Below, piece after piece: positions 1 through 39,308 of a stretch of 64,000 nucleotides of DNA (position 1 is its first letter; each line of letters starts with the position of its first letter). This stretch comes from Escherichia coli (GTDB taxonomy: Bacteria; Pseudomonadota; Gammaproteobacteria; Enterobacterales; Enterobacteriaceae). A model generated the notes under the pieces. It had not been told where the DNA came from, did not search any database, and was given only the letters and a program-made list of their open reading frames with translations. Made by a program: the position numbers and the translations under genes. Location: NCBI RefSeq assembly GCF_002854065.1, contig NZ_CP024147.1. One strand, given 5' to 3'.

Positions 1-122
1 GTTATGCGGTAATCATCCGTTTTCAGGACAATCTGCAATTCACTGTTTTTTTGCAACAGAACTTCAATAGACATTCTGATGATAGGATGAGTATCCATAA
101 TGATCACCGACGTTGGTTTCAT
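1..122 (-). CDS. fimZ: Fimbrial response regulator FimZ, N-terminal 40 codons only; the gene continues beyond the window start
   Basis: Reverse complement of 1-122 translates MKPTSVIIMDTHPIIRMSIEVLLQKNSELQIVLKTDDYRIT from an ATG at 120-122; position upstream of argU as in K-12. Confidence 0.7.
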   Translation of the reverse strand, partial: MKPTSVIIMDTHPIIRMSIEVLLQKNSELQIVLKTDDYRI

Positions 123-364
123 AGTTACCAGTCTCATAGGAGCGGACAATTTTCCGTTAGGGCGGTAAATTGTACTTTGATACATGAAAATACGGGTTTT
201 CTTGATTCAGACGCGCAGCGATGTGCATTTGTTTGCCGCTATAGCGAAATAAATCAGAAAATCAGACGCGGTCGTTCACTTGTTCAGCAACCAGATCAAA
301 AGCCATTGACTCAGCAAGGGTTGACCGTATAATTCACGCGATTACACCGCATTGCGGTATCAAC

Positions 365-441
365 GCGCCCTTAGCTCAGTTGGATAGAGCAACGACCTTC
401 TAAGTCGTGGGCCGCAGGTTCGAATCCTGCAGGGCGCGCCA
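365..441 (+). tRNA. argU: tRNA-Arg (anticodon UCU), argU; integration target of the prophage
   Basis: 77-nt sequence GCGCCCTTAGCTCAGTTGGATAGAGCAACGACCTTCTAAGTCGTGGGCCGCAGGTTCGAATCCTGCAGGGCGCGCCA with cloverleaf arms and UCU anticodon; 3' 45 nt repeated at 16895-16939. Confidence 0.92.
397..441. repeat. attL core: 45-bp direct repeat (3' end of argU) marking the left prophage junction
   Basis: Identical to 16895-16939. Confidence 0.85.
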
Positions 442-456
442 TTACAATTCAATCAG

Positions 457-1620
457 TTACGCCTTCTTTATATCCTCCATAATTCCAGAGTGGGACATAT
501 TTGGGACATTATCACCAAAAATGTCGTCTATTTTCCTCGCATGCTCTGTCAAATGATTAGGCGCAAGGTGAGCATACCTACGAACCATTTCTATGGACTC
601 CCATCCGCCCATTTCCTGAAGCACTGATAATGGGACGCCTGACTGAATCAGCCAGCTTGCCCAGGTGTGTCTGAGGTCATGGAAACGGAAATCTTCAATT
701 CCTGCACGACGACAAGCTGATAGCCATGATGTCTTGCTGTCGATGCGCATCTTCCTGACCGCAGGCGTTGATGTTCCATCTGCTCGCTTAGCCGCCTTGG
801 TATGTACAAACACCCATTTGTGATGCTTGCCTATTTGATCACGCAACACTTTACAGGCGGTATCGTTCAGCGCCACACCAATGGCGCGGTTTGATTTGCT
901 CTCTTCTGGATTCACCCAGGCAACTCGTCGCTGCATGTCGATTTGTTGCCATTCCAGATTTATGATGTTCGACTTTCTCAGACCAGTTGCCAGCGCAAAC
1001 TTGACGACAGATTTCAGTGGTTCGGGGCACTCATCAATAAGGCGTTTTGCTTCCTCCTTTTCCAGCCATCTGACTCGCTTGTTTCTGACCGCTGGTATCT
1101 TGATGACAGGCGCTTTTTCCAGCCACTTCCAGTCGCGTTCTGCAGCACGGAGAATGGCCTTTATCATGGCAAGATGCTTTGCCTTTGTCTGAGTTGATAC
1201 TGGCTTTGGTTCATAAACAGGCAGTTCTTTACCTTTCCTGATGGCGGCCTGAACTTTCTGTTTCCATATTTCTTTCGTCTTTCTGTTATGCATTCTGCTT
1301 ACAGCAGAGTAAATCTTTGCCTCCGAGATATCTTTAAGCCTTATACCCTCAAAATGTTCAAGCCAGAACTCAATCCGGCTTTTATCTGAATCGAGAGATT
1401 TTTTATCAGCTTTTTCCTCAAGCCATCTTAGGCAGGCCTCTTCAAAAGTGACATCAGGTAAATCCCCTAGCTTTTCTACTCGCCAGAGTTCTGCTTTTCG
1501 CTTGTCGTGCAACTCCTGAGCTTGCCGCTTGTCCTTTGTGCCAAGAGATTCCTTAATTCGTTTCCCGCCCGGGAGCGAATACGAGGCATACCATATTTCA
1601 TTTCTGCGGAAGAGTGACAT
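457..1620 (-). CDS. intD: Prophage tyrosine integrase (DLP12 IntD-like, 387 aa)
   Basis: 387-aa ORF directly adjacent to tRNA; C-terminal R..HxxR..Y catalytic region ([15 protein letters not shown]); matches remembered IntD. Confidence 0.95.
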
Positions 1621-1847
1621 TTTCTTTCCTCTGTTATGCCATCACCCGCGCTCACCTGGACAGTATGCAGCGGAGACTGAAGCGCCGCAATGCAGGCTTG
1701 CCGTGTTGTGAGGTAAGGAGATTTTGGCTTGGTTGGATCTTTACGTGTTGCCTGTAGGCGGCCTGTTCGTATCCAGTTGGTGGCGGTTGGTCTGGATATC
1801 TTAAGAAACTGACAGGCCTCATCGAGTGTGAGGCTGTATGATTCCAT
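1476..1847 (-). CDS. Excisionase-like HTH protein (Xis/AlpA type); possibly a pseudogene because it overlaps int by about 145 nt
   Basis: ORF upstream of int with HTH motif [26 protein letters not shown]; start taken at internal Met MESYSL. Confidence 0.45.
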
Positions 1848-2097
1848 GGTTACCTCTGCTTTTTGAACGCATGTCACGTAACTTCTTAATGTGTTCTGCC
1901 GTTTCGATCTCTTCTGCTATCCGATCTGCATCAGCTTTATTCACAGGTTCAAAGTCATGATTAAAGCGGAACATGCTGGCGATACATGTTCTGCCTTTTC
2001 GGATGTAGTGAACTTTGTTGTGGGTAGAACGCAGGATTTTGCAGGGAGTGCCGTGGTGGTCGACGTACCAGGTGTTAGGAAAAATGATTCTGAACAT
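1819..2097 (-). CDS. Hypothetical prophage early-region protein (92 aa)
   Basis: ORF only; position between xis and the TraR-like gene; no recognised motif. Confidence 0.3.
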   Translation of the reverse strand: MFRIIFPNTWYVDHHGTPCKILRSTHNKVHYIRKGRTCIASMFRFNHDFEPVNKADADRIAEEIETAEHIKKLRDMRSKSRGNHGIIQPHTR

Positions 2098-2144
2098 TTT
2101 TACACCTCAGTTGGACGATGTTGAAATTTGCTGCTTTGAGGCCA

Positions 2145-2363
2145 TCACAGTCCCCATTGTTTGTTCTTAAGTTCGATCTCCTCCTGGCAACTCGCACAAG
2201 TCCGACAACCCTGAACAGCCAGGCGTCTTCGCTCATCTATCGGATCGCCACACTCACAACAATGAGTTGCGGATACAGTCTGGTAGTTCAGACGACGCAT
2301 TTTTATTGCTGTATTGCGCTGTAATTCTTCGATTTCTGATGCTGAATCAATGATGTCTGCCAT
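2145..2363 (-). CDS. TraR/DksA-family C4 zinc-finger protein (phage TraR-like, 72 aa)
   Basis: 72 aa with CxxC-(17)-CxxC (CCECGDPIDERRRLAVQGCRTCASCQ), typical of the TraR/DksA C-terminal zinc finger. Confidence 0.6.
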   Translation of the reverse strand: MADIIDSASEIEELQRNTAIKMRRLNYQTVSATHCCECGDPIDERRRLAVQGCRTCASCQEEIELKNKQWGL

Positions 2364-2590
2364 CTTTCATTAATCCCTGAATTGTTGGTTAATACGCTTG
2401 AGGGTAAATGCGAATAATAAAAAAGGAGCCTGTAGCTCCCTGATGATTTTGCTTTTCATGTTCACCGTTCCTTAAAGACGCCGTTCAACATGCCGATCGC
2501 CATGCTTAAATGAGTCGGTGTGAATCCCATCAGCGTTACCGTTTCGCGGTGCTTCTTTAGTATCTGGCTGAAAGAGGGGGTTATTAAGGC

Positions 2591-2953
2591 GTGAATACCT
2601 ACAGCATCACATTACCCTGGCCTCCGAGCAATAATCGCTATTACCGCCATAATCGCGGGCGCACGCACGTCAGCGCAGAGGGGCAGGCATACCGCGATAA
2701 CGTCGCCCGAATCATTAAAAACGCAATGCTGGATATCGGCCTGGCTATGCCTGTGAAAATCCGCATTGAGTGCCACATGCCGGATCGCCGTCGCCGTGAC
2801 CTGGATAATCTGCAAAAAGCCGCTTTTGACGCACTCACTAAAGCAGGTTTCTGGCTGGATGATGCTCAGGTCGTTGATTACCGCGTTGTGAAGATGCCTG
2901 TTACCAAAGGTGGGAGGCTGGAACTGACCATCACCGAAATGGGGAATGAATGA
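2591..2953 (+). CDS. rusA: Holliday-junction resolvase RusA (120 aa)
   Basis: 120 aa [18 protein letters not shown]... matching remembered RusA. Confidence 0.93.
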
Positions 2954-3090
2954 TGTTTGAGTTTTATATGGCAGAACTTCTTCGCCACCGCTGGGGGCAT
3001 CTGCGCTTATATCGTTTCCCCGGTTCTGTTTTGACCGATTACCGAATACTGAAGAGTTACGCCAAAACCCTGACAGGAGCAGGAGTATGA
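2950..3090 (+). CDS. ylcG: Small prophage protein YlcG (46 aa)
   Basis: ATG overlapping rusA stop; translates [46 protein letters not shown]; below the ORF-track size cutoff. Confidence 0.6.
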
Positions 3091-3175
3091 AGTCAGAGAT
3101 AACAATCAACTAATACTGTTTTGTTGATTTTTGCTTGTAATTGGCGTTTTGGTCTGATTTTTGTGGAGTAAGTTG

Positions 3176-3559
3176 ATGCGTGATATTCAGATGGTTCTTG
3201 AGCGTTGGGGAGCGTGGGCGGCTAATAATCATGAAGATGTGACCTGGTCGTCCATTGCCGCCGGTTTTAAGGGATTAATTCCTTCAAAAGTAAAATCTCG
3301 CCCGCAATGTTGTGACGATGACGCGATGATCATTTGCGGGTGCATGGCCCGTCTGAAAAAGAACAACAGCGATTTGCACGATTTATTAGTAGATTATTAT
3401 ATAGTCGGTATGACATTCATGTCACTGGCAGGTAAGCATTGCTGCTCTGATGGTTATATCGGGAAAAGGTTACAAAAGGCTGAGGGCATAATTGAAGGGA
3501 TGTTAATGGCATTAGATATCCGGTTAGAGATGGATATCGTTGTTAATAACTCTAATTAA
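3176..3559 (+). CDS. quuD: Late-gene antiterminator Q (QuuD-like, 127 aa)
   Basis: [24 protein letters not shown]... matches remembered DLP12 QuuD; start taken at second Met of the track ORF. Confidence 0.85.
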
Positions 3560-3584
3560 TACGCCAATTATTTACTAAAAGTTA

Positions 3585-3622
3585 TTAAAAATGGGGCGTT
3601 GAAGCGCCCCCAAAAATAAAGG
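3585..3622. terminator. Bidirectional rho-independent terminator between quuD and nmpC
   Basis: GC hairpin GGGGCG-ttgaa-GCGCCCC flanked by A-run upstream and A/T-run downstream. Confidence 0.5.
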
Positions 3623-3747
3623 GTAATATATAACAGAAGGTTTGTATAGTTAGAAGCAAGGTTGTGCTTCTAAAGGAAGTGGCTTGAGGGAGCCACTTAT
3701 ATGTTGGGGAGGCAAAGCCTCCCACAACATATCTTTTAGTAATCAAA

Positions 3748-4830
3748 TTAGAACTGGTAAACCATACCTACAGCAACGATATCATCGGTAGCAACGCCAG
3801 ATGCTTTCGTGAAATCGCTCTTATCAATCAGGTTGATTTTGTAGTCAACAAAAGTGGACATATTTTTGTTGAAGTAATAGGTTGCACCTACATCAACATA
3901 TTCAACCAGGTCCTGATCACCCCAAACACCCAAGTCTTTTCCTTTAGAATGCAGGTAAGCAACGGATGGACGCAGGCCGAAGTCGAACTGATATTGTGCA
4001 ACAGCTTCGAAGTTTTGTGCTTTGTTGGCAATATGGTTATTACCAAAAACAGTCATGTTCTGGGTTTCAGAATAGGTGGTGGCCAGATAGATGTTGTTCG
4101 CATCATATTTCAGACCAGCTGCCCATACTTCAGCATTTTGACCAGAAGCATTCAGACCGTTGTTACCGTAGATAACCTGATTATTAGTGCGATCAGATTT
4201 AGCATAGGTTGCACCCACGCCGAATCCTTCATACTCATAAGTAGTTGAGAAACCGAAACCATCGCCATTAGCTTCAGTTACTTCATTTCGGTCATTTTTG
4301 CCCTGATACTGAGCTGCAAAGTTCAGGCCATCAACCAGACCAAAGAAGTCGTTGTTACGATAAGTTGCAACACCTGTGGTGCGACCAGTCATGAACACAT
4401 CTGTTTGGGTCCAGGTATCGCCACCGAATTCTGGCAGAACGTCAGTCCACGCACCGATGTCGTATGCTACACCGTAGTTACGGCCGTAATCGATTGAGCC
4501 GTAGTCACCGAATTTCAGGCCAGCGAAGGCAAGACGGGTTTTATCTTTGGAGGAACCTTGAGATTCAGCGCGGTTGCCTTTGAATTCATATTCCCACTGA
4601 CCGAAACCAGTCAGTTGATCGTTGATTTGGGTTTCACCTTTGAAGCCAAGACGGGCATAAGTAGTATCACCATCATCTGCATCATTAGAGGAGAAGTAGT
4701 GCTTAGCATTAACTTTCCCGTACAGATCCAGCTTGTTACTGTCTTTATTATAAATTTCAGCTGCCTGAGCAGACATCGCCATCAGTACTGATGCAGCTAC
4801 AGCAGAAATTGCCACTGTTAATTTTTTCAT
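3748..4830 (-). CDS. nmpC: Outer-membrane general porin NmpC/OmpD-like, apparently intact (360 aa)
   Basis: Signal peptide [23 protein letters not shown], porin beta-barrel sequence ending in C-terminal F; uninterrupted here (K-12 copy carries IS5). Confidence 0.9.
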
Positions 4831-5258
4831 CGTGAGCCCTTTTTTTTGAACTATTATTAAAAAATGATGTCACTGCGCGATAAATATTCATCTAATCAAT
4901 GTGATTATTTCAAGATGTAAGTTTTGGTTTCTCGTTTAATTTGTGAAGTAGATCTCTATTTTTATCTGAACTTTTTTCTATCGAATCCTATTCATGGCTC
5001 TTGGCTGAATAAAAATAAATCTATTAGCCAATTTATATTAATGGCTGTTATTTATAAGTGCTCTATAATTTGAAGGTTCAATTTAAATTGGCTAAAAATA
5101 ACGCTGGAAATTATTTGTTGGTTATTTGTTGAGATTTTCTTATGTATTTGTAGTGGTGTTTTCAATACTCGGTAGCATTCTCGCAAATATCATTTAGTGG
5201 TTTACGTACGTAAAAAATTGGTTATGCTGTTAAGAGTGGTTACTTCGTTACACAGCTT

Positions 5259-5291
5259 AAACCCGCCGTCGAGCGGGTTTTTCCATTTTTT
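5259..5291 (+). terminator. tR'-like terminator in the late leader upstream of the lysis genes (Q antitermination target region)
   Basis: Hairpin AACCCGC-cgtcga-GCGGGTT followed by TTTTCCATTTTTT. Confidence 0.45.
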
Positions 5292-5403
5292 GAGTCTCGA
5301 TATTAGCTGATAACCCAATACCTGAGTTATTCACTGACTCCGAGTCTGTTACGTTTCGTAGTATTCCCTCAATTTACACCCGCTTTGTCTGCGAGGTGGG
5401 GTT

Positions 5404-5619
5404 ATGAAATCCATGGATAAGTTAACAACGGGTGTCGCCTATGGCACCTCAGCAGGTAGTGCCGGGTACTGGTTTTTACAGCTGCTCGATAAAGTCACGC
5501 CCTCACAGTGGGCAGCAATAGGTGTGCTGGGTAGCCTGGTATTTGGCCTGCTGACGTACCTGACAAACCTTTATTTCAAGATTAAAGAAGATAAGCGCAA
5601 GGCTGCGAGAGGTGAATAA
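5404..5619 (+). CDS. essD: Phage holin (EssD-like, 71 aa)
   Basis: 71 aa with hydrophobic TM segments and charged C-terminus; first gene of lysis cassette. Confidence 0.9.
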
Positions 5620-6116
5620 TGCCTCCATCATTACGAAAAGCTGTTGCTGCTGCTATTGGTGGCGGGGCTATTGCTATAGCATCTGTGTTAATCACTGGCC
5701 CAAGTGGTAACGATGGTCTGGAAGGTGTGAGACATAATCCTTACAAAGACATAGTTGGTGTATGGACTGTATGTTACGGGCATACAGGAAAAGACATCAT
5801 TCCCGGTAAAACGTATACCGAAGCAGAGTGCAAAGCCCTCCTGAATAAAGACCTTGCCACTGTCGCCAGACAAATTAACCGGTACATCAAAGTCGATATA
5901 CCGGAAACAACGCGCGGCGCTCTTTACTCGTTCGTCTACAACGTGGGTGCTGGCAATTTCAGAACATCGACGCTTCTTCGCAAAATAAACCAGGGTGATA
6001 TTAAAGGCGCATGTGATCAGCTACGGCGCTGGACATACGCTGGCGGTAATCAATGGAAAGGACTGATGACTCGCCGTGAGATTGAGCGTGAAGTCTGTTT
6101 GTGGGGGAAACAATGA
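5619..6116 (+). CDS. rrrD: SAR endolysin / lysozyme (RrrD-like, 165 aa)
   Basis: N-terminal signal-anchor-release segment [18 protein letters not shown] followed by lysozyme domain; ATGA overlap with holin stop. Confidence 0.9.
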
Positions 6117-6571
6117 GCAGAGTAACCGCGATTATCTCCGCTCTGGTTATCTGCATCATCGTCTGCCTGTCATTGGCTGTTAATCATTACCGTGATAACG
6201 CAATCGCCTACAAAGAGCAGCGCGATAACAAGGCCAGTGAACTGGAGAAGGCGAACGCCACCATCGCTGACATGCGGAAGCGTCAACGTGATGTAGCAGA
6301 ACTCGACGCAAGATACACAAAGGAGCTTGCTGATGCTAACGCGACTATCGAAAGTCTCCGTGCTGATGTTTCTGCTGGGCGTAAGCGCCTGCAAGTCGCC
6401 GCCACCTGTGCAAAGTCAACGACCGGAGCCAGCGGCATGGGCGATGGAGAAAGCCCAGGACTTACAGCAGATGCTGAACTCAATTATTACCGTCTCCGAA
6501 GTGGAATCGACAAGATAACCGCGCAGGTTAACTACCTGCAGGAATACATCAGGACGCAATGCCTGAAATAA
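6113..6571 (+). CDS. rzpD: Spanin inner-membrane subunit Rz (i-spanin)
   Basis: N-terminal TM helix then coiled-coil-rich periplasmic domain; ATGA overlap with endolysin; diverges from K-12 RzpD. Confidence 0.85.
6327..6518 (+). CDS. rzoD: Spanin outer-membrane lipoprotein Rz1 (o-spanin), embedded in the +1 frame of Rz
   Basis: Lipobox LLGVSAC followed by proline-rich segment [13 protein letters not shown]; wholly inside Rz in another frame; exact start uncertain. Confidence 0.7.
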
Positions 6572-6602
6572 TTTTTTTGCAAATCACAAAGTCCATTTAA
6601 TG

Positions 6603-6628
6603 AGCCTCGCGATGCGGGGCTTTTTTTA
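6603..6628 (+). terminator. Rho-independent terminator after the lysis cassette
   Basis: Hairpin CCTCGC-gat-GCGGGG followed by CTTTTTTT. Confidence 0.5.
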
Positions 6629-6866
6629 CATCTGAATTTCACAGCGCATCTCACGCGCATATTACATCACCCGAGCCTTTCAGAAAGTTGAGCCTGAGAA
6701 CTGCCGTATATGGTGGCGACCATCTCGGGGCGGCTTTTCTGTGAGACAGGCTCACTTTCTAAAAGGTAAAGACGCTATGAACCAATTAGAAGAAAAGCTT
6801 CAAAGAATGATTTCCTTATACAAGGAAGATAACTGCCAAAAAGTTCCTTAAAACATCGCAGAGTTA

Positions 6867-7265
6867 ATGGAATTGGCAAGTGAATTTTCTGGCATGCTTA
6901 AGTCGTCAGGTGTTCGGTCAGCGTTCTTTGTTGAAATGCTGATGCACGGCGGACTTATGGCAACAATGAGACGTGTAATGGAAGACCAGAGAAAAGAACC
7001 TCCTCAGGTATACGTTTTGTCATCGAAGAAAACTGGGCTAACCAAAATTGGGTATTCATCCAACATTCCACAACGCATCAAATCGCTTGGCAACTCTGGA
7101 CCAGACTGCTTGAAGCTTGAGTGCCTGATCCCTGGTGGAAGAGAAACTGAAAACATGCTTCATCGCAAATTTGCCGCAAAGAGAAAGCACGGTGAATGGT
7201 TCGCCCTGTCCAAGGATGACATTGAGGGATTGAAATCTGTAGCGATTACTTCTGATGGCTATTAA
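6867..7265 (+). CDS. T5orf172 / GIY-YIG-like domain protein (132 aa), prophage accessory gene
   Basis: Motif block VYVLSSKKTGLTKIGYSSNIPQRIKSL...ENMLHRKFAAKRKHGEWFAL resembles the T5orf172 (MUG113) fold; N-terminal 45 aa unassigned. Confidence 0.5.
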   Translation: MELASEFSGMLKSSGVRSAFFVEMLMHGGLMATMRRVMEDQRKEPPQVYVLSSKKTGLTKIGYSSNIPQRIKSLGNSGPDCLKLECLIPGGRETENMLHRKFAAKRKHGEWFALSKDDIEGLKSVAITSDGY

Positions 7266-7943
7266 TGCTTGTTTAGAGCAATTTTCATAACAACTCTTCA
7301 TTACAAAGCCCATCTACTGGTGGGCTTGATAATGAAACCGTGATTTACATCCCCACAATCCGGGTATGTAAAAGATAGTTCAGGCGAGAACGGATTTAAC
7401 TAAATCTGTGCGCCACCAGTTAACGGCAGTACCACGAAACAACCCAAGCCAGTAAGTGGGGAAATAACACCGGCAGCCACTGAAAGATGAACCTCCTGCC
7501 TTATGGCAAAAAAGATTCTTTGTGGTGGCGGACTGATGGAAAGACATCCTAATTTCAGCCAAACATTGAAGGAGTTGTTATGTCAGCAGAAGGTTTCAAT
7601 AACCCATCAAAATTCCGGGATGAGTGGGATAGCAGCGTAAAGAGTAAGTGATGCCATCACAAAAGCCATTCCCTACAGAGTGGCTTTGATAATGGCTTAT
7701 ACCCTACACGGGATAACTTAACTGATATCCTTTTTAAAGGATAAAGGTATTCAAGCCTGACACATCATGCGCTGTATCGTCGCCGTATTCCCGTATTAAC
7801 AGAGACCGTAGCCCGACGGGGAACTCCTTCTGCGCGAGTGTGCGGGAATAATCAAAAACGATGCACACCGGGGTTACCGGGTACACATATTTCATCATGC
7901 CAGCGAGTCCGGTTCTGGCACGGAAGAAACCGGACGTTATGAT

Positions 7944-8354
7944 TTAGTGCGGAAATATTTGTGTAGTGTTCTGAATGTTCTCAGTAAAGAGTAATGAATT
8001 ATCAAAGGTATAGTAATACCTTTTGTTTTCGTGGATATTTGTAATCCATCTGAAAACCCCTGCTGTAGCAAGATTTTTCCTGTATTCGTAAAATGATAAC
8101 TCTCCTGATTTGAATCCTTTTAATGTGGTTTCTATAAGGCATTTATTTTTTGAAAATCTTACATTTACAACCTTACCCTGTCCTTTTATTAAAACCGTAT
8201 TATCGTTTTCAAGAACAAGATGAATATTCTCTGTGGCTAAATAGTAAATGTAATGTGAGACATTGTGACGTTTTAGTTCAGAATAAAACCAGTGATAGTT
8301 TAAATTATTTCGCACTTTATCGAATATTTGTTTAAAAATGGCAACCTGAGCCAT
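7944..8354 (-). CDS. Uncharacterised AT-rich prophage protein (136 aa from second Met; possibly YbcV-like)
   Basis: ORF in low-GC segment; length and position relative to the cos/nu1 region resemble DLP12 ybcV; no motif recognised. Confidence 0.45.
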
Positions 8355-8411
8355 TGTAGTACCTTCCATGTGATATGAAGGTACCTAGTCTGCACGATTA
8401 TCTAAATTGCT

Positions 8412-8645
8412 TCAATCTGGTCTGACCTGCTTTCTGAGCAATTCAGTAATGTCACTCTTTTCTTTGTTTGCTTCAGGCGAAACTCTTTTTTCTGAGCACA
8501 GTCTTCGGCGGCAGGCTTCAATGACCCAGGCTGAGAAATTCCCGGACCCTTTTTGATCAAGAGCGATGTTAATTTGTTCAATCATTTGGTTAGGAAAGCG
8601 GATGTTGCGGGTTGTTGTTCTGCGGGTTCTGTTCTTCGTTGACAT
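8412..8645 (-). CDS. Small ribbon-helix-helix-type DNA-binding protein (YlcI/DUF3950-like, 77 aa)
   Basis: Basic N-terminus then NIRFPNQMIEQINIALDQKGSGNFSAWVIEACRRRL, consistent with RHH/Arc-like fold; adjacent to cos as ylcI is in DLP12. Confidence 0.5.
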   Translation of the reverse strand: MSTKNRTRRTTTRNIRFPNQMIEQINIALDQKGSGNFSAWVIEACRRRLCSEKRVSPEANKEKSDITELLRKQVRPD

Positions 8646-8689
8646 GAGGTTGTCCCGTATTCAGTGTCGCTGATTTGTATTGTCTGAAG

Positions 8690-9000
8690 TTGTTTTTACG
8701 TTAAGTTGATGCAGATCAATTAATATGATACCTGCGTCATAATTGATTATTTGACGTGGTTTGATGGCGTAGATGCACGTTGTGACATGCAGATGATAAT
8801 TATTATCATTTTGCGGGTCCTTTCCGGCGATCCGACAGGTTACGGGGCGGCGACCTCGCGGGTTTTCGCTATTTATGAAAATTTTCCGGTTTAAGGCGTT
8901 TCCGTTCTTCTTCGTCGTAACTTAATGTTTTTATTTAAAATACCCCCTGAAAAGAAAGGAAACGACAGGTGCTGAAAACGAACTTTTGGGCCTTTGTCGT
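8690..9000 (+). other. Lambda-type cohesive-end site (cosQ - cosN - cosB); cosN 12-nt overhang sequence GGGCGGCGACCT at about 8845-8856
   Basis: Near-identity to the joined right and left ends of phage lambda as I recall them (…CCGACAGGTTACG|GGGCGGCGACCTCGCGGGTTTTCGCTATTTATGAAAATTTTCCGGTTTAAGGCGTTTCCGTTCTTCTTCGTC…) directly upstream of nu1. Confidence 0.8.
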
Positions 9001-18819: not shown

Positions 18820-21792
18820 TTACCAGTGCACTCCAATGGTGAGAAACGCGTTGTTGCGCTCTCCGTTACGTTGATTAATCGCCTTAAAGGTATGTTGATA
18901 CTCGACGCCGAGACTGACTTTGTGCGGCCAGGCGTCGTAGTGCGTCTCGCCGGTCCAAATATTCCAGCGGACCCCGACACCGCCAAGCTGCGCGCCCTGA
19001 GTGCCTTTATCACGATAGCCGTTGTCCTGAACGTGAGCGTAAGGCTCAATAGTCTGTCCGTTAGCTACCTTCTGATGCCAGCTGACGCGATAATCTGCCG
19101 TCCACGCCTGAATATCCTGGCGGATATATTGCGCCGCATCGAGGTACAGGTTTTGGGCAAACCAGCCTGAACCGTTCGGGTGCCATTCGTCGCTGTATTT
19201 GCCGCCATTAAAGAATGAGGCGCTGGCGCGCAGCATGGTATCGGATGCGCCATTTTGCCCGTTCAGCGGCAACTGCTGTTCGACGGCGAGGAAAAAGATC
19301 TGATCGCTCAGCGGCTTCCAGCGTAGACCGGTGCCGGACATCGGATTTTTCACCGGCATCATCACCCCGTTTTCTCCGGTATCGGCAAAGACGCGGCTAT
19401 AAACTGAGAGCAGGTCGCCTTCCAGCAGCATATTGCGTCCGATGCGGTACTCGGCTTCCAGTTGCCCGTAGCTACGATAGCTTTTCCCTGGCGCTGCGCC
19501 GCCAACATTATTGTTAGCGGTACTCATTGCCCCGGAACGCAAGCCGATGGAAGAATCGAAACTGAACGTCCAGCGGCGACCGACCTCCTCATGCAGACGG
19601 CGGAAATTGAAGCGTTGCTGATTTTGCTCTGGGGTCAGTGGGGTTATCAGCGCCTGATTATCAATGTCATCAATCACCAGCCGGGCGTAGTACTGCGTCG
19701 CAGGCATGTCATCCAGACGCTGGTTCACATAGGCCAGTTGTCGGATCAGTGCCGGATCGTCCGGTAGCCCTTTATGCGCCTGTTCGAGCATTTCCCGCGA
19801 CTGTGCGATATCACCGCTATCCCACAAGGCGTAACCAAGCGCTGCCTGGGTGTTGCTATTATTCGGTTCCAGTTCCAGCGCGGCGCGCAAATCACTCACC
19901 GCGGCCGGGACATTATGACGTTGGCGATAAATTGTCGCCCGCGCAACGTAAGCGTTGGCAGAAGGCGCAATATTGATTGAGCGCGTGAGATCGTTCAGTG
20001 CGAGTTCCGGCTGACCAGGAATGTAACGTTGCGCATGCAGCCACCAGTAGAGCGCATTGCTTCCCAGTCCACGTTTTTCTGCCTGTTGTAGCCAGCGATC
20101 GCGAGCCGCACCATTTCCTGCCGCCTGGGCGGTATTGGCAGCAGCAAGCAGATCCTCATTGCTCATGTCGTGAAGACTGATTTTCTGCCAGGCCGCCAGT
20201 GCGGTGGCGTAGTCCTCAACCTGATACGCCTGATAGGCTACCGCACGATGTTGCCAGGCGTTCGGTTGTCGTTGTTCGGCCTGAAGCCATGCATACAACG
20301 CCACACCGGGTAGCGTGTCCCGATAACACTTTGCCAGACGGTTCCAGGCGGCAGCATCGTAGGAAGGCGACATATCGCCCAGCAAGCGAACTATTGCCGG
20401 GCAATTATCTGCAATACCCGGCAACTGACTTTGCCACTGACGTTGCTCCGCCAGCGGTAAGGGTTTCGATAAAATCGCCACCTTCGCTGGAGTTGCCAGG
20501 TAAGGATGACTTTCCAGAAGAGACGCCAGTCGCGCCATTAAAGTCTGGCTGACACGCGCATCGCCCTGGAAAGGATAGCGTTGCAGCAATAAATCGGCAG
20601 CTTCGCGTGACTGCTCGCTCTGTATCAGTTGCCAGGTTAGTTGATCCAGGCGGGTAAGATTTGCCGGTTCTTGCTGATACAGCAAGCGTGCCAGACGCAG
20701 AGCTTCAGCCTTGTTACGGGTCGCCACGCTGACAGCATAACGCTCCTCAAGCATTTCATTGGCGGGGAGGGTGGCGAGCAGTTTTTGCGCTGCGTCGTAC
20801 TGACCTTCTTTTAACAGCACCGGTAGCGTCGCGCCAACAACATACTGGCGGTTATCGGCAAACTGCACCGTATAATTCGCCAATGCCTGAACGGGGTTGG
20901 CGCTGTATTTAGATAACAGATAGAGCCAACTTTTCTCTTGTGCGTCCGTGGTAAACAGCGGCTTATTTTCAATGAGATAATGCTGGAGGCGTGCTTTTTC
21001 GCCACGATAAGCCAGCGCGGTCGCGTAAGTAATATATGACTGAGGATCGGTGAAGATCCCCTGTGATTGCAGTGCCAGGATCCGATCGTCCAGCTGCCCG
21101 GCAAGAAGCACGTCAAACCACTGACGGCGTTCTGCCGCGCTTAATGTGTTCTGCTGGCGTGCTTCATTGTATAGCGTATCTGCCTGGGACCATTGTTTCA
21201 GGTAGATTGCCCGTTGCAGCAGATCGGTTCGCAGCGTTTTTCCTTCCGGCGATGCAGCAAACGTCGCATCGTTCAGTTGCGCTCTGGCGACAGGTAACTG
21301 TGCCAGCCGCAGGGCATTCTGCCCGACTTCACTGCGACAACGCAGGGTCGGCGCAGCATCGCACGCTTTTTGCTGGGCAAGCAGTTCTTCAACTGTCGTA
21401 ACGCTTTTCACTTCAACTGGAATAGCCGCCAGACTGCGCTCAAGTCGGGCATCTCCTGGGTGACGTTTCAGTTGATCCTCAAGCAACAGCCGCGCCCGGT
21501 CATCATGACCAAAATGGCGATAGGCTTCCGCAAGGTATAAAGTCAGCGGAATATTATCCGGCACCTGCTGGTGTATATATTCATATTCGCGGATGGCGGT
21601 TGCTTCGTCGTTATTTTTCTGTGCCTTCAGCGCCTTATCGAGACGGGGATAAATAACAAAATGGCGATAATCGCTCAGCCCCAGCTCTTCTGCGCTGGTG
21701 CCGATATTGTCTGCGAGTGCGCTGGTACTCAATAAAGACGTCAGCAGTAAACCAGACCATCCGATGACGCGATTAAGGTTATTCTCCTTCAT
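18820..21792 (-). CDS. nfrA: Bacteriophage N4 adsorption protein A (outer-membrane, TPR-containing; 990 aa)
   Basis: 990 aa from MKENNLNRVIGWSGLLLTSLLSTSALA; the track ORF has a 7-codon upstream extension. Confidence 0.9.
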   Translation of the reverse strand: MKENNLNRVIGWSGLLLTSLLSTSALADNIGTSAEELGLSDYRHFVIYPRLDKALKAQKNNDEATAIREYEYIHQQVPDNIPLTLYLAEAYRHFGHDDRARLLLEDQLKRHPGDARLERSLAAIPVEVKSVTTVEELLAQQKACDAAPTLRCRSEVGQNALRLAQLPVARAQLNDATFAASPEGKTLRTDLLQRAIYLKQWSQADTLYNEARQQNTLSAAERRQWFDVLLAGQLDDRILALQSQGIFTDPQSYITYATALAYRGEKARLQHYLIENKPLFTTDAQEKSWLYLLSKYSANPVQALANYTVQFADNRQYVVGATLPVLLKEGQYDAAQKLLATLPANEMLEERYAVSVATRNKAEALRLARLLYQQEPANLTRLDQLTWQLIQSEQSREAADLLLQRYPFQGDARVSQTLMARLASLLESHPYLATPAKVAILSKPLPLAEQRQWQSQLPGIADNCPAIVRLLGDMSPSYDAAAWNRLAKCYRDTLPGVALYAWLQAEQRQPNAWQHRAVAYQAYQVEDYATALAAWQKISLHDMSNEDLLAAANTAQAAGNGAARDRWLQQAEKRGLGSNALYWWLHAQRYIPGQPELALNDLTRSINIAPSANAYVARATIYRQRHNVPAAVSDLRAALELEPNNSNTQAALGYALWDSGDIAQSREMLEQAHKGLPDDPALIRQLAYVNQRLDDMPATQYYARLVIDDIDNQALITPLTPEQNQQRFNFRRLHEEVGRRWTFSFDSSIGLRSGAMSTANNNVGGAAPGKSYRSYGQLEAEYRIGRNMLLEGDLLSVYSRVFADTGENGVMMPVKNPMSGTGLRWKPLSDQIFFLAVEQQLPLNGQNGASDTMLRASASFFNGGKYSDEWHPNGSGWFAQNLYLDAAQYIRQDIQAWTADYRVSWHQKVANGQTIEPYAHVQDNGYRDKGTQGAQLGGVGVRWNIWTGETHYDAWPHKVSLGVEYQHTFKAINQRNGERNNAFLTIGVHW

Positions 21793-38684: not shown

Positions 38685-39034
38685 CCGTTGTGCGGGGAGT
38701 AATCCCCGCATATCCGGTTGTCAGGTCAGGATGGTAAGGCACCTGCTTTACACTTTCGCCCGCGGTCAGTGATGGCTGCGGGCGGTTTCGTTTTAAGAGC
38801 AATGATGAGTTTTGCCGACAGAAGTCCGAAACAGGATTCACTGTATAAATAAACAGCTATTTTGCTAAGGAAGGGTAAGATAACGGCGGGTGCCTGAAGC
38901 TTTCCGGTTTCAGGTTAACTCTGAGGTTTGGAAAGATGAAGCCCCAGGAGATATTTCTATCAATCCTGGGGCTGCCACTCCGAACCTGAACAACTCGGAT
39001 GGTAGTCCCTTCTTCGCATGGAGGCAATATAAAC

Positions 39035-39187
39035 ATGCTGACGAAATATGCCCTTGTGGCAGTCATAGTGCTGTGTTTGACGGTGCTGGGATTTACGCTT
39101 CTGGTCGGAGACTCGCTGTGTGAGTTCACCGTAAAGGAACGTAATATTGAGTTTAAGGCTGTTCTCGCTTACGAACCGAAGAAGTAG
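39035..39187 (+). CDS. hokE: Hok-family membrane toxin, copy 2 (50 aa; R42K relative to copy 1)
   Basis: [50 protein letters not shown]. Confidence 0.85.
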
Positions 39188-39308
39188 CCGTTGTGCGGGG
39201 AGCAATCCCCGCATATCCGGTTGTCAGGTCAGAGTGGTAAGGCACCTGCTTTACACTTTCGCCCGCAGTCAGTGATGGCTGCGGGCGAATCGTACCAGAT
39301 GTTGTCAA

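Follow-up and report, generated by a model that had tools for sequence, protein, structure and literature searches.

An intact nmpC/lc-type porin gene between the Q gene and the late promoter of a DLP12-type prophage in Escherichia coli

Described phage-borne porin loci and the locus in the window

The nmpC porin gene, its placement in DLP12 and PA-2, its promoter, the IS5 insertion in the K-12 copy and the IpeX RNA have all been described already. In E. coli K-12 the gene lies in the prophage DLP12 (qsr′) at the tRNA-Arg argU/intD site, flanked by rusA, ylcG and quuD on one side and by essD, rrrD and rzpD on the other. The classical lysogenic-conversion porin is Lc (protein 2) of phage PA-2, whose gene is antisense to the lysis genes and is annotated with a CRP site (GenBank J02580). 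The region from –199 to –1 of K-12 nmpC contains a sigma-70 promoter with a mapped transcription start site at a ‘G’; it is activated by Crp through two sites, is repressed by OmpR, IHF and MprA, and drives the only IS5 transposase mRNA detectable by 5′ RACE (PMC11677980). IpeX, a 167-nt DLP12 RNA, arises within the porin transcript under the phage porin promoter (PMC12197685, PMC5069750) and is reported to lower OmpC and OmpF (PMC5069750, PMC3333887).

Here we analyzed a window of 64,000 nucleotides, the whole of one stretch of an E. coli contig (NZ_CP024147.1, assembly GCF_002854065.1), in which an nmpC/lc-type general porin gene is found at 3748–4830 on the – strand. At this end of the window a tRNA-Arg (365–438, from an Rfam search) stands next to the integrase gene intD (457–1620), and the order after intD is rusA, ylcG, quuD, porin, essD, rrrD and the Rz gene, the same as in K-12 DLP12. 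The gene quuD (3176–3559, + strand) encodes a Q antiterminator of 127 residues of the 933W/Q21 type (Pfam Phage_antitermQ, 1e-53), which shares 78% identity with the Q protein of phage 933W and has a remote match to the solved Q21 (E 1e-7); its name is that of the RefSeq annotation in a 99.9%-identical strain. The first late gene, essD (5404–5619, + strand), encodes a P21-type holin (Pfam Phage_holin_2_1, 2e-35) and is likewise named essD in RefSeq. With quuD and essD on the + strand and the porin gene opposite to them, the preliminary description of this DNA was right to place the porin antisense between Q and the lysis genes. Its assignment of the locus to nmpC agrees with the gene order and with the flanks: the promoter region, the 3′ UTR, the late promoter pR′ and the first 148 residues of the protein are 97–100% identical to K-12 DLP12. 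The differences from K-12 DLP12 are that the porin in the window has no IS5, is 360 rather than 365 residues long, and departs from the K-12 protein only in its C-terminal 60%. The early region differs as well: it lacks the emrE and ybcK-ybcO of K-12 and contains DUF4222 and TraR/DksA-type genes.

Comparison with phage 933W delimits the inserted DNA. The distance from the end of Q to pR′ is 88 nt in 933W and 1,691 nt here, and the extra DNA comprises a 3′ UTR, the porin gene and the porin promoter region. The cassette, at about 3509–5199, thus consists of an IpeX-type 3′ UTR, an nmpC/lc-type porin gene and, as its own promoter region, one that is predicted to depend on CRP. It is a lysogenic-conversion ‘moron’ that fits precisely into the interval from the 3′ end of Q to the cognate pR′ of Q. 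Thirty-six phage records, PA-2 lc and 434B among them, have the Q-porin-S arrangement, and a 434 derivative has taken up the K-12 segment together with its IS5. Among the closest relatives are phages ev243 and PhiR70_1, in which the porin is identical in 360 of 360 residues and the Q-porin-holin DNA is 98.7% identical. Those are complete phage genomes, whereas the cassette in the window lies in a decayed prophage with IS1 and IS2 insertions downstream of it. PA-2 shares with the window the antisense placement, the CRP site and the 3′ UTR (94.7%), and differs in that Lc belongs to the K-12-type allele group. Outside Escherichia the closest named relative is OmpD of Salmonella enterica (about 80% over the full length), which is the product of a chromosomal gene in another genus. 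We consider it very probable that this is the usual Q-porin-lysis segment of a lambdoid prophage of the DLP12 type, located at tRNA-Arg, with nmpC divergent from pR′.

The porin protein and its alleles

The preliminary description had taken the porin gene to be intact, encoding 360 residues with a signal peptide. In the open reading frame list, 3748–4830 on the – strand is translated into 360 residues with no stop or frameshift. A hidden lesion of this kind was looked for in 3748–4830 and none was found: at least 1,000 contigs encode exactly this protein, as does the temperate phage ev243, and therefore no sequencing-type defect is concealed in the reading frame. The family matches run over the full length of the mature protein. 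Residues 29–360 align with positions 1–337 of the Pfam Porin_1 profile (PF00267, 507 bits), and the NCBIfam porin OmpC model, which is of subfamily level and not an equivalog, is matched at 515 bits against a cut-off of 484. Solved chains of OmpK37, OmpC, OmpK36, PhoE and OmpF match residues 24–360 with E values from 1e-135 to 1e-115. Because the mature chains in the PDB begin to align at residue 24 (AEIYNK), immediately after a segment ending in AQA, the signal peptide is 23 residues long (4762–4830); the PA-2 record annotates a sig_peptide of 23 codons for lc. In an alignment with 22 relatives, the P and both G residues of the constriction-loop motif PEFGG are invariant, its E and F are nearly so, and the YQF of the C-terminal VYQF is invariant. 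An AlphaFold2 model built from the 22-sequence alignment had a mean pLDDT of 35 and was unusable. From these sequence features, NmpC should be exported by its 23-residue signal peptide and form a trimeric 16-strand general diffusion porin, a channel in the outer membrane.

The disruption of nmpC by IS5 in K-12, which the preliminary description had noted, was located precisely: IS5B splits the gene 58 nt before the stop codon, with a target duplication of TTAG. With IS5 removed, the K-12 protein has 365 residues and 330 of 365 positions are identical to the protein in the window; the same value (330/365) was obtained for PA-2 Lc, and PA-2 Lc and K-12 NmpC are identical to each other at 361 of 365. 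Residues 1–148 are identical in all three proteins. At the DNA level, identity to K-12 per 60-nt block falls to 32–58/60 only within about 3750–4420, the allele-specific part that encodes the C-terminal 60% of the protein, and is 57–60/60 elsewhere in 3176–5619. The near-identical blocks comprise the Q gene, the Q-porin spacer, the first ~440 nt of the porin gene, the region upstream of it, the late promoter and essD.

The variable blocks fall where the enterobacterial porin alignment is rich in indels and poorly conserved. Given the OmpF and OmpC structures and this indel pattern, the blocks are probably the surface loops L4–L8. Among the phage porins there are at least three allele groups (K-12, Lc, Chlobot and PhiR29_1; the window and ev243; and 4C10), and all are identical over the first ~148 residues. 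The pattern is thus a mosaic, in which the promoter, the first 148 residues and the IpeX 3′ UTR are almost invariant and the C-terminal 60% is variable. One speculative reading, possible though on balance unlikely, is that the cassette is a modular ‘surface-swap’ unit in which lambdoid phages recombine with one another and so exchange the C-terminal 60%, the part that encodes the loops. If that were so, each lysogen would exchange the OmpC/OmpF of its host, via IpeX, for a porin with a different surface, and the docking of phages, colicins or antibodies would be altered. Selection for surface diversity may underlie this mosaicism of the loops.

Transcription of nmpC and of the late operon

The promoter region of nmpC (PnmpC, 4831–5029, – strand) is nearly invariant relative to K-12, with 59–60 identities in each block of 60, and at 4939–4959 there is an exact match to the annotated CRP site of the PA-2 lc entry (J02580). 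A sigma-70 scan at default stringency found no nmpC promoter, and a relaxed scan of the upstream DNA returned five candidates scoring 8/12. We tentatively assign the PnmpC hexamers to TTGAAA-18-GAATAT at 4913–4884, the best of several weak candidates in the sequence. We infer that nmpC would be expressed in this strain and that its RNA would start and end as in the map proposed here, being transcribed leftward from PnmpC and stopping at the terminator at 3593–3610.

An intact gene may nevertheless be silent, through repression by OmpR, IHF, MprA or nucleoid proteins acting on the AT-rich upstream region. That reading has several points behind it. The repressors are those listed for PnmpC (PMC11677980), the spacer between nmpC and pR′ is only 28–29% G+C, and the title of Prilipov et al. 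(1998), as cited in PMC3333887 and PMC5745476, describes nmpC of E. coli B as quiescent. Independent IS insertions in nmpC, with IS5 in K-12, IS1 in a B-lineage strain and others, suggest that its loss costs little. Set against these, PnmpC of K-12 is active enough to be the source of the only IS5 transposase mRNA that could be detected, the nmpC mRNA has been reported as a target of small RNAs in E. coli (PMC3333887), and the intact reading frame is found unchanged on 1,000 contigs or more as well as in viable phages. We regard silence as possible, at rather less than even chances. Since it concerns the activity of the gene and not its identity, it is compatible with the reading of the region as the DLP12-type porin segment.

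Under that reading, the nmpC transcript would end in a structured 3′ UTR (about 3581–3747, – strand). In the – strand RNA this region folds into stem-loops at 3699–3732, 3677–3698 and 3650–3673, followed by the terminator stem at 3593–3610 and a U tract, with a folding energy of –57.4 kcal/mol (z = –7.8 relative to shuffled sequences). The 188-nt Q-porin spacer is present in all 36 porin-bearing phage records, at 93–99.5% identity, and in none of the records that have no porin. The alignment of the 3′ UTR contains no compensatory pairs, the substitutions lying in loops or being G-U compatible; covariation was looked for and not found, all identities being above 93%, and the evidence for the structure consists of thermodynamics and conservation only. 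By location, size and conservation the region matches IpeX and is a candidate for it. A search of 1–9000 against Rfam at a permissive E-value returned no IpeX- or StxS-like family, the matches being the tRNA-Arg and chance hits. The boundaries of the 167-nt RNA in the window are our own placement from the descriptions in reviews. Production of IpeX in this strain would be expected from the map, and the RNA would then lower OmpC and OmpF.

The preliminary description had placed terminator-like hairpins on both sides of the porin gene. Both exist, to within one base, and they belong to different transcripts. The first, at 3593–3610, was identified in the terminator scan as an intrinsic terminator stem of the nmpC/IpeX transcript: it is a GGGGCG-6-CGCCCC hairpin with six G-C pairs and a loop of six, followed on the – strand by ATTTTTAATA. 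On the + strand the stem is trailed by CAAAAATAAA, and it is therefore not an efficient terminator in that direction. The second is formed by AAACCCGC-6-GCGGGTTT at 5259–5280 with a T tract running to 5291, and its terminator score is on the + strand. It therefore acts on rightward RNA and not on the porin transcript, being a proximal element of the late leader instead of a terminator that flanks the porin gene.

When the porin-to-holin spacer was searched against phages, 5200–5282 matched the segment found at the end of Q in 933W and in many Stx phages; in 933W it aligns with 20665–20746, which is annotated as promoter, qut and terminator, at 76% identity. The 933W feature ‘pR′; putative late promoter’ reads TTTACG-16-TATCAT, and the corresponding site here, at 5201–5228 on the + strand, is TTTACG-16 nt-TATGCT with a predicted start near 5235. 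The initial transcribed region and the hairpin are also conserved, the hairpin at 5259–5280 being homologous to the first ‘possible rho-independent terminator’ of 933W, and the pR′ region of K-12 DLP12 is identical to that in the window. The only homologue of the Q933W-type pR′ thus lies beyond the porin promoter and is directed rightward, and therefore nmpC and the late operon are transcribed divergently.

This is contrary to the preliminary description, in which nmpC was convergent with late transcription. In its fuller form, that alternative holds that the late promoter is just 3′ of Q, that late transcription collides with nmpC, and that the two hairpins insulate the porin gene. It draws on the position of pR′ directly after Q in lambda and 933W, on the opposite orientation of nmpC with respect to Q and the lysis genes, and on the presence of a hairpin on either side. 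A scan of 3560–3747, from Q to the stop codon of the porin gene, detected no promoter-like site on the + strand, however, and the location of pR′ at 5201–5228, from which it fires away from nmpC, and the + strand T tract of 5259–5291 both argue against it, leaving it very improbable. In the divergent arrangement that we prefer, only read-through from the Q gene converges on nmpC, and this RNA would be antisense to the 3′ UTR.

Late transcription would thus run rightward from about 5235, meet the hairpin at 5259–5291 and, with Q, proceed into essD-rrrD-rzpD. The closest described leader is the pR′-tR′ leader of the Stx phages 933W and Sakai Sp5, the source of the StxS sRNA, which shares with the window the –35 and –10 elements, the initial transcribed region and the first hairpin. 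In the Stx phages the leader runs on to a second terminator at +258, followed by tRNAs and stx (PMC7547250). In the window the homology stops after the first hairpin, essD follows 112 nt further on, and the terminator scan found no second terminator before essD. The PR′ RNA of the Sakai Stx phages ends 258 nt downstream of its start (PMC7547250), the same distance as that from the annotated pR′ to the second terminator in 933W. Since these data suggest that the first hairpin is read through in the Stx phages, the hairpin at 5259–5280 is only a candidate tR′, and by this analogy its terminator activity may be weak. In work cited in PMC7918800, the DLP12 lysis operon is reported to be under the control of RpoE and a Q-type antiterminator at a promoter that precedes essD, which fits the pR′ map.

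Distribution of the intact gene and its significance

Of 5,426 complete E. coli genomes, 2,392 contain the 2.6-kb Q-porin-holin segment with a coverage of at least 80%, and about 2,500 contain the porin gene alone at that coverage, with 244 records at 99% identity or more. The IS5::nmpC junction of K-12 was detected in only 282 of the 5,426, mostly laboratory derivatives of K-12. Among 22 rows sampled at even intervals from the carriers, 18 had the full-length porin gene in a single piece. From these counts, an intact nmpC is the norm and the K-12 pseudogene is not the usual state; the intact gene is an ordinary constituent of about 40% to nearly half of complete E. coli genomes.

These results bear on annotation. 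In near-identical strains PGAP/RefSeq labels the gene ‘ompC: porin OmpC’, and the NCBIfam porin OmpC model is passed, yet there is practically no chance that it is the chromosomal osmoporin gene ompC, given a position inside a prophage between Q and the holin gene and near intD and tRNA-Arg, 90% identity to K-12 NmpC and PA-2 Lc with identical flanks, and the subfamily rank of the model. The label is excluded by synteny and was rejected; as a name for this porin it is misleading. The annotation value of the locus is that intact nmpC, and not the K-12 pseudogene, is common in natural E. coli.

The suggestion in the preliminary description that such a porin can change outer-membrane permeability and sensitivity to phages and colicins is in line with the literature (PMC11677980). 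The divergence of nmpC and pR′ removes an antisense conflict that would otherwise have been expected at this locus. Strains that carry it may make an extra porin together with a small RNA that lowers OmpC and OmpF, and both products bear on studies of antibiotic permeability and of phage and colicin receptors.

Gene content relative to K-12 DLP12

The early region of the prophage (window 1621-2590) differs from that of DLP12, the K-12 prophage used as reference for gene order. In the window only about 1 kb separates intD from rusA, and this interval holds a DUF4222 gene (1819-2097), a gene for a TraR/DksA zinc-finger protein (2145-2363) and gene fragments, whereas the K-12 block exoD-renD-emrE-ybcK-ybcL-ybcM-ybcN-ninE-ybcO is absent. 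A further difference follows the Rz gene, where K-12 carries borD on the opposite strand and the window has a GIY-YIG/T5orf172-type open reading frame of 132 aa (6867-7265; Pfam MUG113 and T5orf172).

Promoter-like signals flanking the porin gene

From the sequence, the late promoter pR' together with the hairpin downstream of it (window 5235-5291) would yield a short leader RNA, predicted at about 55 nt. In Stx phages, the StxS precursor is 258 nt long (PMC7547250), and its 5' part is the homologue of this predicted leader; the homology of this segment to the Stx phages 933W and Sakai ends directly after the hairpin. Inside quuD, the Q gene, the minus strand carries a near-consensus sigma-70 site (GTGACA-18-TATAAT, 3396-3425, 11/12 match) that is directed antisense to the gene and resembles the lambda antisense promoter paQ. 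This site may be a chance match, since shuffled sequences contain more promoter-like sites in total than the region does.

Insertion sequences in the window and at the porin locus

Comparison with strain 100416, which is 99.9% identical, placed differences in insertion sequence content at three sites. An IS421 copy adjoins hokE in strain 100416 and is missing from the window, where a short repeat of the flanking 390 bp (95% identical) stands in its place (38706-39209). Conversely, strain 100416 lacks the 768-bp IS1 that lies in the prophage tail-gene remnant of the window (11853-12620), with inverted ends of 23 nt each and a 9-bp target duplication, GCTTATTCA. The third element is an IS2 copy (15112-16440), whose TnpA and TnpB both exceed the NCBIfam cut-offs, and which splits the minus-strand ompT gene in two (14181-15111 and 16441-16470). 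Because this insertion lies just past the ompT start codon, by about 25-30 nt, and is missing from strain 100416, OmpT, a protease of the outer membrane, has probably lost its activity in the strain analysed.

At the porin locus itself, independent insertions were found across lineages, in genomes including NZ_CM196089.1 (BAP1), NZ_AP027588.1, NZ_CP100994.1 and K-12 strains. The element is IS5 in K-12 (282 genomes) and IS1 in one B-lineage strain; LR-64-1 carries an insertion of the ISVsa5 type, and in ET201 a member of the IS30 family lies within the locus. That separate lineages acquired these insertions independently suggests that the prophage porin has been lost recurrently.
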